Below, piece by piece: positions 58,707-62,007 of a stretch of DNA of 64,000 nt. The notes below the pieces were generated by a model. That model was not told where the DNA came from. It made no database searches and saw nothing but the letters and a program-made list of their open reading frames with translations. The stretch is from Candidatus Limnocylindria bacterium (GTDB taxonomy: Bacteria > Chloroflexota > Limnocylindria > P2-11E): the NCBI GenBank assembly GCA_036001645.1, contig DASYUC010000003.1, forward strand, positions 21,439 through 85,438. Reading direction: 5' to 3'. A program made the translations under genes and the position numbers. Numbering within the stretch: position 1 is the stretch's first letter; each line of letters begins with the position of its first letter.

Positions 58707-59186
58707 ATGAGGAGCTTCCGAATCTCATTGACCGGTGCGACGCTATCTGGATTCATGCTGGTCAGCTGTTCCGCCGTCGTCGCACCTTCCGTTCGCCCTT
58801 CTGCGACCGCAAGCGTCCATTGCGACGCAGGCACGATCCGCGACGCAGGCGAGCGCTTCTTTACGCTCTTCAACCAGCGCAAGCTCGATGAGCTCATGAC
58901 CCTGTTCCTGCCGGATGCGCGAACGTACTACGTCCGCCGCGGCGATCCGGTCACCGGTGACTTCAAGGAGAGCGGTCCCGCGGAGATCCGGCAGATGCTC
59001 GCCGACCGCATTGCCAGCGGTGAAACATTGCGGACGTCCGCGATCGTCACGGTCTCGAGCGGCGGATCGACGATCGCTACGGGGACGTTCCCCGATGGCA
59101 CCACCAGGAGACTCGATGTGAAGTACGGCTATGACTGCCGTCGCCCGGGAATTTCGCAGCTGCTGATCACGCCGATCGGTGTGTGA
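58707..59186 (+). CDS. hypothetical lipoprotein
   Basis: Signal peptide plus lipobox LVSCS; lower-GC 5' region. Confidence 0.45.
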   Translation: MRSFRISLTGATLSGFMLVSCSAVVAPSVRPSATASVHCDAGTIRDAGERFFTLFNQRKLDELMTLFLPDARTYYVRRGDPVTGDFKESGPAEIRQMLADRIASGETLRTSAIVTVSSGGSTIATGTFPDGTTRRLDVKYGYDCRRPGISQLLITPIGV

Positions 59187-59278
59187 TCTCGCGAATAGTG
59201 CGTCACTTTCCCATCCGGATGCGTCGCGCGCGCAGTTCCGCCACGCGATGGTCTGTCCGGGCACGAACGGCGTGACCA

Positions 59279-60571
59279 TCACGGCAGTATCCGGTTGAGG
59301 TCCCGAGGGAAGAGCGTCGTCTCGCGCAGGTTGCTCGCGCCGATGACCTGCTGCACCCAGCGTTCGATGCCGATCGCGAACCCACCATGGGCGGGCATGC
59401 CGTAACGGAACGCCTCGAGGTAACCGGCGAACGGCGTGGGGTCGATGTGCCTCTCGCGCATCGCCGTCTCGTAGTCCTCGTATCGATGGAGCCGCTGGCC
59501 CCCGGTGGCGAGCTCGAGGCCACGGAACAACAGATCGAAGCTGTTGGAGTACGCCGGTCGCGCGGGGTCGGGGTGCGTGTAGAACGGACGCTTCGTCATC
59601 GGAAACCCCACGACGAACAGGAAGTCGGAGTTGTATGTCCGGAGCGCCCACTCGCCCAGCCAACGCTCATGCGACGGTGCCAGATCAGGCTCGGCCAGCA
59701 CCTCGGTGCCGAACTCGCCAGCGAGCAGGTCGAGGGCCTCGGTGAAGTGCAGCTCGGGAAACTTGAGTGGCACCGCGATCGGCAGGCGGGCCCCGGCCCG
59801 CGCTACGGCGGCGTGCTCGCTCACCGCGCCGGCCATGGCGCTCGTCACCTGCCCGAGCAGTGCCATCACGTCGTGGTGGTCGGTGATGAATCCCATCTCC
59901 GCATCGAGCGAGATGTACTCGTTCAGATGGCGCGGCGTGTCGTGGGGCTCCGCACGGAAGACCGGCGCGACCTCGAACACGCGCTCGAACGCGCCGACGA
60001 GCATCTGCTTGTACAGCTGCGGGCTTTGCGCGAGATACGCCGGCTGGCCGAAGTAGTCGAGCCGGAAGCAGTTGGCGCCGCTCTCGGTCGCGGTCGCAAC
60101 GATCTTTGGCGTGAACACTTCCGTGAACCCCCGCTCGCGCAGGGCTGCGCGATACGCCGCAGCGGTGGCGTCCATGAGCTGGAACGCCGCACGCCGACGT
60201 GGGTGGCGCAGCGAGACCGCCGCATGGTCGAGGAGCGTCGGTAGCGCCGCGTCAATCGTCGGCCGGAACAGGTCGAATGGAAGACCCGCAGCCGCGGACG
60301 ACAAGACGCGCACCGTCGCCTCGCGCACCTCAACTCCGCCGGGAGCTCGCGGCTCAGCAACGGCAAGGCCACCGACCTCGATCGCCGACTCGGGCGTGAT
60401 CTGGTCGACGCCGGATGCATCGGGTACGGACGCGACCTGGCACATGCCCCAGGCGTCGCGGAGCACGAGGAAGGTGACCTGCGAGAGGAGCCGGCGGTGG
60501 TGCAGCCAGCCGCGCAGCAGCACCTGTTCACCGGCGTGTTGCGCGAGTTCGCTGGTTCGTATGCGTTCCAC
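59279..60571 (-). CDS. aspS: class IIb aminoacyl-tRNA synthetase, archaeal-type AspRS/AsnRS family (about 430 aa)
   Basis: N-terminal OB anticodon-binding domain, class II motifs 1-3 (FRAE, GGQRLHRYE, GFAIGIERW); start set to GTG 60571 with GGAGG SD 6 nt upstream; the listed ORF adds 16 codons of leader. Confidence 0.75.
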   Translation of the reverse strand: MERIRTSELAQHAGEQVLLRGWLHHRRLLSQVTFLVLRDAWGMCQVASVPDASGVDQITPESAIEVGGLAVAEPRAPGGVEVREATVRVLSSAAAGLPFDLFRPTIDAALPTLLDHAAVSLRHPRRRAAFQLMDATAAAYRAALRERGFTEVFTPKIVATATESGANCFRLDYFGQPAYLAQSPQLYKQMLVGAFERVFEVAPVFRAEPHDTPRHLNEYISLDAEMGFITDHHDVMALLGQVTSAMAGAVSEHAAVARAGARLPIAVPLKFPELHFTEALDLLAGEFGTEVLAEPDLAPSHERWLGEWALRTYNSDFLFVVGFPMTKRPFYTHPDPARPAYSNSFDLLFRGLELATGGQRLHRYEDYETAMRERHIDPTPFAGYLEAFRYGMPAHGGFAIGIERWVQQVIGASNLRETTLFPRDLNRILP

Positions 60572-60775
60572 AGGTCGCCTCCGTCTTTCATGTGGACGGG
60601 GAAACCGTGGTGCCACCACACTTCGCTCGCCCTGTGGCGAGCCTCATGAGGTCCGATAACGGGGACGACCGGCGGGTTCTAGATGGACTCGCGCCCACTC
60701 TTCCCGCACTCGAGGGTGTCCGACGCTGAGCTCCGGGCACCGCCTTGCACCATCCGGCGGCTCTCTTGGCCCTAC
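60572..60775 (-). promoter_or_regulatory. candidate T-box riboswitch leader (SD-sequestering, actinobacterial translational type) upstream of the aaRS gene
   Basis: On the minus strand: F-box CCGUUA; stem-III hairpin CUCGCC-ACAG-GGCGAG; T-box core GUGUGG-UGGCACC-ACGG-UUUCC-CCGU-CCACAU (A1 and A2 helices with 7-nt bulge); downstream hairpin UCCCCGUC/GACGGAGG covering the GGAGG SD. Confidence 0.5.
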
Positions 60776-60887
60776 ACCCAGGTCGCTCCCAGTCAGCGTG
60801 TTGCCTTGATCGTAGACCGAAACTCGGCGACGGGGTCGACGCGAGGTCTTCGCGCGCACCAAACACCGCTTGACTGGAAGAAGTGTC

Positions 60888-60963
60888 GGTAGCCCGTACC
60901 GGATTCGAACCGGTGGTCTCTGCCTTGAGAGGGCAGTGTCCTGGGCCGCTAGACGAACGGGCC
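60888..60963 (-). tRNA. tRNA-Glu (anticodon CUC)
   Basis: Manual fold: acceptor GGCCCGU/ACGGGCU (G1-U72 wobble), D-loop AGCGGCCCA, anticodon stem CUGCC/GGCAG loop CUCUCAA, T-arm ACCGG-UUCGAAU-CCGGU, discriminator A, CC encoded. Confidence 0.8.
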
Positions 60964-61080
60964 GGAGGCTTCCATTGTACCGAGCGTGACCTGTCGCGGT
61001 CCCTTCACGCGCTGAGCGATCTCGTCGCGCCGGGCGTCCGGCGCATCCCCATCCCCCTCCCGATCCGCGGTCTCTCGATC

Positions 61081-62007
61081 GTGAACGCCTATCTCGTCGA
61101 AGGGGCGCACGGCTGGAGCCTCGTCGACGTGGGCCTCCACACGGCCGAGGCCGAGCAGGCGCTCCGCGCCGGTCTGGCAGACGCGGGGATCGGCATCGAG
61201 GACGTGCGGCGCGTGTTCGTCACCCATCTTCATCCCGATCACATGGGCATGGCGGGGACGCTCGAGCGCGCGGGCGCCGAGGTGCTCATGCACACGCCGG
61301 AGATCGCCGCCGCGCGCCGCGTCTGGTCGAAGGGACACGAGGCGATCGACGCGACCTACGACTGGTTCGTGCGCCACGGGATGCCGCGGGACGTCGATGA
61401 GGGGATGCGACAGGCCTGGATCGCGATGGGCGAGCGCGTCGACGATCTCGGCCGTGTGAGCGGCGTCGAGGACGGGGCGAACGTCGATCTCGGCGGTCGC
61501 GCGACGCAGCTCCGCTGGACGCCGGGGCATACCGACTACCACGCCGTCCTCATCGACGAACGCGACGGCGTCTTGTTCGCGGGCGATCACGTGTTGCCGC
61601 GCATCACCTCGAACATCGGGCTCTATCCCTCCTCGCGCGACGATCCGCTCGGCGACTTCCTCGGCGCTCTCGCGCGGCTACGCGACCTACCGGTGAAGCG
61701 CGTGTTGCCGGCGCACGGCGATCCGTTCGAAGACCTCGCCGGCCGTGTCGACGAGCTCCTTGCGCATCACGCGGCGCGACTCGATGCGACCGTCGCGGCG
61801 ATCGGGGCGACCGAACGTGACGCGTATGCGATCGCGCGAACGCTCTTCCCGGTACTGCGCTCCCCGCACGAGGAGCGCTTCGCGCTTGCCGAGACGCTCG
61901 CGCATCTCCGGCACCTCGAACGCAAAGGTCTTGTGCGCGAGATCGAAGGATCCCCTGCGCGATGGAGCGTCACGCGTCACCGTGAGGGCAGGGGCATCGC
62001 CCCTTAA
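61081..62007 (+). CDS. MBL-fold metallo-hydrolase
   Basis: THLHPDHMG motif; start uncertain: the ORF is open back across the tRNA-Glu gene with no canonical in-frame start until GTG 61081. Confidence 0.7.
   Translation: MNAYLVEGAHGWSLVDVGLHTAEAEQALRAGLADAGIGIEDVRRVFVTHLHPDHMGMAGTLERAGAEVLMHTPEIAAARRVWSKGHEAIDATYDWFVRHGMPRDVDEGMRQAWIAMGERVDDLGRVSGVEDGANVDLGGRATQLRWTPGHTDYHAVLIDERDGVLFAGDHVLPRITSNIGLYPSSRDDPLGDFLGALARLRDLPVKRVLPAHGDPFEDLAGRVDELLAHHAARLDATVAAIGATERDAYAIARTLFPVLRSPHEERFALAETLAHLRHLERKGLVREIEGSPARWSVTRHREGRGIAP

Follow-up and report, generated by a model that had tools for sequence, protein, structure and literature searches.

Translational T-box riboswitches have mostly been described from Actinobacteria; most of them carry an intermediate or ultrashort Stem I and only "a few" a long one (PMC7583486). 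In the T-box database TBDB these translational (class II) T-boxes were sought only in Actinobacteria and among matches with a truncated Stem I (PMC7778990). Experiments on this mode have so far centred on the actinobacterial ileS element with its truncated Stem I. For aspartate (Asp), a T-box has been reported on one of the three aspS genes of Clostridium acetobutylicum (Wels et al.; PMC2494555). Here we describe a leader located directly 5′ of an aspS gene in a stretch of 64,000 nucleotides (nt) of contig DASYUC010000003.1, from Candidatus Limnocylindria bacterium; this whole stretch is hereafter called the window, all coordinates refer to it, and both leader and gene lie on its minus strand. 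The leader is best explained as an Asp-specific T-box riboswitch acting on translation initiation, a reading that we regard as probable.

A search with the Rfam T-box model RF00230 in E-value mode identified a single T-box in the 64-kb window, at 60805-60589, covering model positions 1-219 (full length) with 68.7 bits (E = 6.9e-15 in the local search, and E = 8.6e-13 when the whole window was compared with all 4,227 families). The gathering score of this family, which is an annotation cut-off and denotes no structural feature, is 93 bits. Because 68.7 bits falls under this cut-off, the T-box is invisible to routine annotation, and a default Rfam scan of the window at the gathering threshold returned three tRNAs only. 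A first-pass annotation made from the sequence alone had proposed a T-box at this place and had recommended the Infernal search; the significant full-length match, together with the conservation upstream of orthologues and the covariation presented below, bears the identification out. The location it had given stands, but its upstream edge (60775) does not, as the true 5′ end lies 30 nt further upstream at 60805, so that the K-turn and, in the lower helices of Stem I, the 5′ strand fell outside the earlier box. Folding of the whole leader (60555-60810) did not recover Stem I and gave a stability no better than that of shuffled sequences (z = -1.31), a result that is uninformative because the RNA is multi-domain, tRNA-dependent and set in 67% GC.

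The model alignment contains the complete set of canonical T-box parts: a long Stem I, Stem II, the Stem IIA/B pseudoknot with its F-box, Stem III, and the discriminator composed of helices A1 and A2 and the bulge between them (Table 1). The F-box, the Stem-III-like hairpin and the A1/A2 helices enclosing a 7-nt UGGNACC bulge, which the first-pass annotation had recognized, are all present and model-aligned, and every listed motif was found on the minus strand at the place assigned to it. Within Stem I, the GAC-A of the specifier ends the specifier loop, directly before the closing helix. A1, bulge and A2 also emerged as the RNAalifold consensus of 18 window-type sequences, including a covarying pair (UA:9/CG:6/UG:3).

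Table 1. Features of the aspS locus and its leader in the window, from upstream to downstream.
Feature	Position	Strand	Basis
tRNA-Glu(CUC), directly upstream of the aspS leader	60963-60888	-	Rfam scan
Putative sigma-70-type promoter: -10 TACGAT (60814-60809), weak -35 TCGACC (60839-60834), 19-nt spacer	60809..60839	-	alignment conservation only
T-box riboswitch leader (RF00230), full length	60590..60805	-	cmscan and 69-leader pairing
Stem I, long form, with K-turn, specifier loop, AG bulge and distal loop	60708..60799	-	model alignment, coordinate mapping, basal-helix covariation
K-turn CUGA/GA	CUGA at 60796	-	aligned to RF00230
AG bulge AGAGA	60766-60762	-	aligned to RF00230
Stem I distal loop GGAUGGUGCAA	60755-60745	-	aligned to RF00230
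Specifier codon GAC (Asp) and conserved 3′ purine A	60717..60720	-	specifier columns of RF00230
Stem II, apical UGGGC-GCGA-GUCCA hairpin (GCGA tetraloop)	60672..60707	-	model alignment; helix 6 88.7% paired
Stem IIA/B pseudoknot CGG-UCGUCC-CCG…GGAC, carrying the F-box; IIB = GUCC/GGAC	60651..60671	-	model alignment, covariation (helix 9)
F-box CCGUUA	60662-60657	-	sequence
Stem III GCUCGCC-ACAG-GGCGAGC, followed by purines GAA	60625..60642	-	model alignment
Stem III stretch listed in the first-pass annotation, CUCGCCACAGGGCGAG	60641-60626	-	inside the full helix 60642-60625
Discriminator/antisequestrator: A1 GUGUGG-CCACAU, A2 ACGG-CCGU (UUUCC between)	60590..60621	-	RNAalifold consensus
7-nt T-box bulge UGGCACC	60615-60609	-	between A1 and A2
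Sequestrator hairpin covering Shine-Dalgarno sequence and start codon	60568..60610	-	minimum-energy fold of window and all close orthologues
Shine-Dalgarno sequence GGAGG, 6-nt spacer to start codon	60578..60582	-	sequence; GG(G)AGG kept in orthologues
aspS, archaeal-type non-discriminating aspartyl-tRNA synthetase (AspRS), 430 aa, GUG start at 60571	59279..60571	-	NF003483, PF00152, homologue lengths

The gene downstream of the leader was confirmed as an archaeal-type aspS, its product scoring 517.8 bits with NCBIfam NF003483 (aspartate--tRNA(Asn) ligase; cutoff 353) and also matching Pfam PF00152 (tRNA-synt_2). AspRS homologues with up to 91% identity are 429-433 aa long and align end to end, at 100% coverage, from the GUG at 60571; the closest named relatives come from metagenome-assembled genomes of Candidatus Limnocylindria (69%) and from other Chloroflexota. 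The suspicion that the first 16 codons of the listed open reading frame (ORF), which starts at 60619, are in fact leader proved correct, since the close homologues all align from the GUG: these extra codons cover the discriminator and the sequestrator, and in the gene model the aspS start moves from 60619 to 60571. The Chloroflexi analysed by Wels et al. were without asparaginyl-tRNA synthetase (AsnRS) (PMC2494555), which fits a non-discriminating AspRS here. One orthologue (L088 / L146) shows CUG where the GUG start would be expected, and its deposited gene call (P0008) has 418 aa and starts further downstream; translation begins here either at a non-canonical codon or at a site that has shifted.

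The presence of a conserved leader before orthologous aspS genes was also investigated. In the contigs of close orthologues (63-85% identity) the neighbouring genes are unrelated, yet the non-coding DNA upstream measures no less than about 230 nt, and in every one of these contigs it aligns to the window leader. Altogether, the leader was identified upstream of aspS orthologues in 69 distinct contigs. A profile search from this alignment recovered related leaders before aspS in other Chloroflexota and in many Actinomycetota, among them Micromonospora, Nonomuraea, Amycolatopsis, Streptosporangium and Kitasatospora. Rfam scans of orthologue loci gave full-length T-box matches in 20 of 23, with scores above the gathering score for L080 (Bacillus multifaciens, 143.6 bits), L048 (117.2), L002 (107.5), L055 (Paenibacillus, 104.4) and L053 (102.1), and with most of the high-GC leaders scoring 40-75 bits. 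The T-box motif of the clade, GAAGTGYGGTGGCACCACGG, was present in 76 metagenomic stretches and was followed by the aspS ORF in 64 of them; the remaining ones are mostly truncated contigs in which the same ORF starts, and two of the 76 are unrelated coding matches. As default Rfam settings miss the window element and most of its relatives, T-box regulation in high-GC Chloroflexota and Actinomycetota is likely under-counted.

For the analysis of covariation the window structure was projected on the alignment of 69 leaders, the controls being the same structure with its 3′ partners slid by 1-3 columns. A standard pair was formed in 82.5% of the cells compared to 40-48% in the slid controls, a percentage that leans toward the proposed structure because this was derived from one member. 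Counts of double changes are less affected by this origin: double-sided changes were found for 39 of the 56 pairs (19-27 in the slid controls), and the covariation score was 0.191 (0.044-0.080 in the slid controls). Covarying pairs are located in the basal helices of Stem I (AU:44/GC:23 and GC:49/AU:15), in the IIB pseudoknot (CG:26/UA:13/GC:1), in Stem III (CG:40/UA:17 and GC:38/CG:21), which varies from 18 to about 70 nt in length among orthologues, and in A1 (CG:54/UA:11/UG:4). The T-box sequence with the UGGNACC bulge, GGUGGCACCACG, is invariant across all 69 leaders.

A large sub-group of metagenomic Asp leaders was found to be without Stem II and the IIA/B pseudoknot, with Stem I leading almost directly to Stem III (columns about 312-385 of alignment A4; e.g., L095, L097, L098, L102, L104, L106, L108, L109 and L119, and further L131-L133, L144, L145, L149, L152, L153, L157, L158 and L166). 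These leaders have a weak Shine-Dalgarno (SD) sequence (GGAGC/AGGAG), and the accessibility predictions for them are mixed. We take this arrangement to resemble that of glyQS-type T-boxes.

The 3′ domain of the window leader has as its minimum-energy fold a long imperfect hairpin, the sequestrator, in which CCAC (60610-60607) pairs with GUGG (60571-60568), GGUU (60606-60603) with GACC (60576-60573), and CCCCGUC (60601-60595) with GACGG(A)GG (60585-60578); single bases separate these helices, a U on the 5′ strand and a C and a U on the 3′ strand. Sequestrator and antisequestrator exclude each other, because the hairpin takes up the end of the T-box bulge, both A2 strands and, from the 3′ strand of A1, its first base. 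A competing hairpin that buries the SD sequence had been proposed in the first-pass annotation; it does exist, but it is longer than described, spanning 60610-60568, and covers the start codon too. Hairpins of the same type represent the minimum-energy fold in all 13 close relatives tested, with shifts in the register of the middle helix. The distance from the end of the discriminator (A1) to the start codon is 18 nt, and a consensus scan found no terminator-like site in 59000-61300. With SD sequence and start codon paired in the minimum-energy folds, no terminator and a gap of this size, the locus is consistent with the SD-sequestering mode suggested at first, and translational control, as predicted from architecture, conservation and folding, is the best-supported reading.

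Accessibility of the initiation region was taken as the unpaired probability averaged over positions -13 to +3 and compared in 14 window-type leaders (the window and 13 relatives). On average it increased from 0.23 in the free state to 0.54 once A1 was imposed as a constraint and the bulge kept unpaired. In the window itself, the comparison of folds with and without the antisequestrator gave 0.19 in the free state and 0.46 with the antisequestrator enforced. The GUG start codons of those members that have one are practically always paired in the free state (unpaired probability about 0.00-0.04).

According to the mechanism proposed here, a promoter of its own, lying just 3′ of tRNA-Glu, would drive transcription of the leader, whose long Stem I would bind tRNA-Asp, with the GAC specifier pairing with the GUC anticodon, the platform of AGAGA and distal loop stacking on the tRNA elbow, and Stem II and the IIA/B pseudoknot supporting decoding. 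In the ON state the 3′ GCCA of an uncharged tRNA would pair with the UGGC of the 7-nt bulge and stabilise A1 and A2 (60621-60590), leaving the SD sequence (60582-60578) and the GUG (60571) single-stranded, and AspRS would be made. In the OFF state, when the tRNA carries its amino acid or is missing, the RNA would adopt the alternative and more stable hairpin (60610-60568), in which the 3′ end of the T-box and both A2 strands pair with SD sequence and start codon, and binding of the 30S subunit would be blocked. Exactly such a switching logic has been reviewed for translational T-boxes (PMC7583486).

Several observations weigh against this reading. The covariance-model score lies below the gathering score, and in the window's clade the specifier-loop S-turn consensus AGUA/GAA is replaced by the degenerate AGCGA/GUCG, the sole visible departure from a canonical T-box in the model alignment. 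A tRNA-Asp gene was not found in the window or in 51 related loci, and the match between UGGC and G73 is a predicted one. With respect to the sequestrator, the shuffle control is weak: when the 5′ segment is dinucleotide-shuffled, the mean is 0.35 unpaired, from which the native value differs only slightly, and 2-39% of the shuffles hide the initiation region no less effectively than the native sequence, since a G-rich SD sequence will find pairing partners in any stretch of high GC content. When applied to the column alignment, RNAalifold returns the antisequestrator and not the sequestrator, and MAFFT places GACGGAGG out of register with respect to GACGGGAGG. Clean column-wise covariation of the sequestrator is lacking because its register shifts among sequences, and per-sequence folding was used in its place. 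The ensemble free energies predicted for the two states lie 7-17 kcal/mol apart, a large difference whose cost would fall on tRNA binding. The evidence for the sequestrator is thus confined to thermodynamic prediction and conservation.

The majority of T-boxes are transcriptional (PMC7583486), and aspS leaders of Ktedonobacteria, Anaerolineae-type Chloroflexota and Firmicutes do end in hairpin-plus-U-run terminators. An Asp T-box acting on transcription could make use of the GC-rich and stable 60610-60568 hairpin as an intrinsic terminator without U-run, or could expose a Rho entry site, both of which have been debated for high-GC bacteria. We consider this unlikely, since the hairpin lacks a U-run on its 3′ side and the terminator scan was empty, since the 3′ strand of the hairpin is the SD sequence and start codon itself, a placement that no terminator requires, and since 18 nt between A1 and the start codon are too tight for a separate terminator. 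The transcriptional and the translational mode are not mutually exclusive.

As to tRNA specificity, the GAC-A triplet had been pointed out as a possible Asp specifier, and the model indeed puts GAC and a purine at the specifier position. The column is conserved over the 69 aligned leaders, with GAC essentially invariant and GAU occurring once, and in the Rfam alignment GAC is also the specifier of the orthologue leaders from Bacillus, Paenibacillus, Actinomycetota and other Chloroflexota. Given the GAC specifier and the AspRS gene downstream, tRNA-Asp is the expected ligand, and the UGGC in the bulge predicts a G73 discriminator for the cognate tRNA. G73 is a known identity base of tRNA-Asp.

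It is far less probable that the T-box reads another tRNA, be it tRNA-Asn or, through another frame in the specifier loop, a tRNA for GGA (Gly) or ACA (Thr). The non-discriminating type of enzyme charges tRNA-Asn too, the specifier of one clostridial orthologue leader (L063) is AAC, and according to TBDB many T-boxes can be read in several specifier frames; in C. acetobutylicum a T-box has been connected with tRNA-dependent amidation to Asn-tRNA(Asn), as far as titles cited in PMC4206432 indicate. The covariance-model alignment nevertheless gives the canonical frame as GAC with A as the next base, and while GAC is kept in nearly all 69 leaders its flanks vary (GGACAC / GGACGC / CGACAC), so that neither GGA nor ACA is preserved. 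In addition, UGGC implies a tRNA with G73, which fits Asp (and Asn) and not bacterial Gly or Thr. That the leader is what remains of a decayed T-box without function, or a GC-rich structure arisen by chance, as its sub-threshold score and unremarkable whole-leader stability might suggest, is scarcely credible in view of the E-value of 8.6e-13, the intact state of every functional motif, the conservation and compensatory covariation over 69 leaders in unrelated genomic contexts, and the related leaders that exceed the Rfam gathering score.

Variation in specifier and bulge was also seen among the Firmicutes. The leader of L063 (uncultured Clostridium sp.), noted together with the Lachnospiraceae-type loci L064-L079, combines AAC (Asn) at the specifier with UGGU in the bulge. 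In Bacillus (L080) and Paenibacillus (L055) GAC occurs with UGGU, and a tRNA-Asp with G73 would then have to form a U-G pair with the bulge.

Upstream of the leader, a TAnnnT box located 8-10 nt before the T-box 5′ end is nearly invariant in the 69-leader alignment, and many rows show TTGAC-like boxes about 17 nt above it; a consensus promoter scan called no promoter at the leader. The conserved boxes suggest that a separate promoter most likely serves the leader and that tRNA-Glu is a neighbour and no part of the element. The tRNA-Glu(CUC) gene reads CCG after the discriminator A, its 3′ CCA being incompletely encoded. It is found upstream of the leader in the nearest relatives only (L105 and L136), and the neighbourhood of tRNA-Glu and tRNA-Gly(UCC) recurs in the closest relative, L105. 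Co-transcription with tRNA-Glu as a conserved feature is unlikely, given the unrelated neighbours of the other orthologues and the conserved -10 box between tRNA and T-box. As a ligand tRNA-Glu(CUC) was rejected as well, since a GAG specifier would be required and its discriminator reads A, not G. Three small ORFs over the leader (60588-60866, 60644-60862 and 60683-60892) were discarded as coding sequences, because orthologous leaders carry insertions and deletions of widely varying length in the loops and in Stem III. On the plus strand, the ORF 60883-62007 begins inside the tRNA-Glu gene, and its real start therefore lies further downstream; it contains an HLHPDHMG motif, which is similar to the HxHxDH motif of metallo-beta-lactamase-fold hydrolases.

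The occurrence of a T-box on an aspS/asnS-type gene had been regarded as unusual in the first-pass annotation. This did not hold, as Asp T-boxes precede the orthologue in Firmicutes, in many Chloroflexota and in many Actinomycetota, in addition to the published case of C. acetobutylicum (PMC2494555). A T-box on the aspS family is itself common; what is uncommon is a translational platform together with a full-length Stem I outside Actinobacteria. In the upstream regions of L001-L091 one orthologous aspS gene with an Asp T-box is combined with three or four platforms, depending on the lineage: (i) a hairpin-plus-U-run terminator in Firmicutes and in Ktedonobacteria- and Anaerolineae-type Chloroflexota; (ii) CACCUCC in or after the A1 3′ strand, facing GGAGGUG, in Actinomycetota, an arrangement described for actinobacterial ileS; (iii) CCCGUC/GACGGGAGG together with CCAC/GUGG in the window's clade; and (iv) pairing of the T-box sequence GGUGGCACC with GGUGUCAC(C), between SD sequence and start codon, in L001, L002, L091 and L086. 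In the same survey this direct pairing was also written as GGUGGCACC/GGUGUCACC.

A short ORF rich in Asp codons was observed between a terminator-type Asp T-box and aspS at four loci from two phyla, namely L018 (Ktedonobacterales, about -201 from aspS), L025 (Chloroflexia, -149), L055 (Paenibacillus hemerocallicola, -116) and L080 (Bacillus multifaciens, -79), with products such as MDDGDDDDDDDDNN…, MDDDDNDND…, MPDDDDCSDDSD… and MDGDDDN…. In both Firmicutes (L055 and L080) it runs out of frame across the SD sequence and start codon of aspS. By its appearance this ORF encodes a leader peptide, through which the ribosome would sense Asp in series with the T-box; the window is without one.

Possibly, although we put this forward as a tentative proposal, the window element represents an uncatalogued and environmentally widespread class of Chloroflexota T-boxes, Asp-specific and translational with a full-length Stem I, in which the invariant T-box …CACCACGG pairs with the start-codon region besides the SD sequence. 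If this is true, pairing between T-box and start codon would favour GUG-G starts, and together with the terminator- and anti-SD-type leaders these elements would form a natural series of one aptamer swapping its expression platforms. A translational T-box of another specificity in which Stem I, Stem II and the pseudoknot are all complete would allow kinetic and thermodynamic arguments to be tested on a different scaffold, and the terminator, anti-SD and T-box-to-start-codon platforms on one gene family would provide a compact system for the study of expression-platform turnover. A literature search found no description of an Asp-specific translational T-box in Chloroflexota, which is weak evidence because its coverage was incomplete.

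Among the known systems, the transcriptional Asp T-boxes of Firmicutes (such as that of C. acetobutylicum, and the orthologous leaders L080 and L055) share with the window an archaeal-type aspS (41-45% identity), the GAC specifier and the same layout of Stem I, Stem II, IIA/B pseudoknot, Stem III and discriminator. They differ from it in ending in a hairpin and U-run and in having UGGU in the bulge, whereas the window has UGGC, no U-run and a sequestrator of SD sequence and start codon. A T-box of C. acetobutylicum is said, in the titles of work by Saad et al. from 2012 and 2013, to control tRNA-dependent amidation. It is tied to the indirect route to Asn-tRNA(Asn), in which a non-discriminating AspRS takes part, and in this respect resembles the present case. 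It is reportedly a transcriptional element that reads Asn and has a second codon, while the window element would read Asp with a single GAC.

The ileS T-box of Actinobacteria (Mycobacterium / Nocardia; Sherwood, Grundy & Henkin 2015, as reviewed in PMC7583486 and PMC7778990) is similar to the window element as proposed here, in that a tRNA-stabilised A1/bulge/A2 structure competes with a helix that buries the SD sequence, in that there is no terminator, and in that the regulated gene encodes an aminoacyl-tRNA synthetase of a high-GC organism. In contrast, the window specifier is Asp (GAC) and not Ile, and the host is probably a member of the Chloroflexota. Its predicted sequestrator makes use of the T-box bulge end and both A2 strands and covers the start codon, instead of employing an anti-SD in the A1 3′ strand. 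Stem I, finally, is of full length with K-turn, AG bulge and distal loop; as AGAGA and distal loop are kept, it is not truncated in the sense of TBDB class II or of actinobacterial ileS. In its predicted mode of action the window element works like the class II T-boxes of TBDB, and it lies outside that structural subclass.

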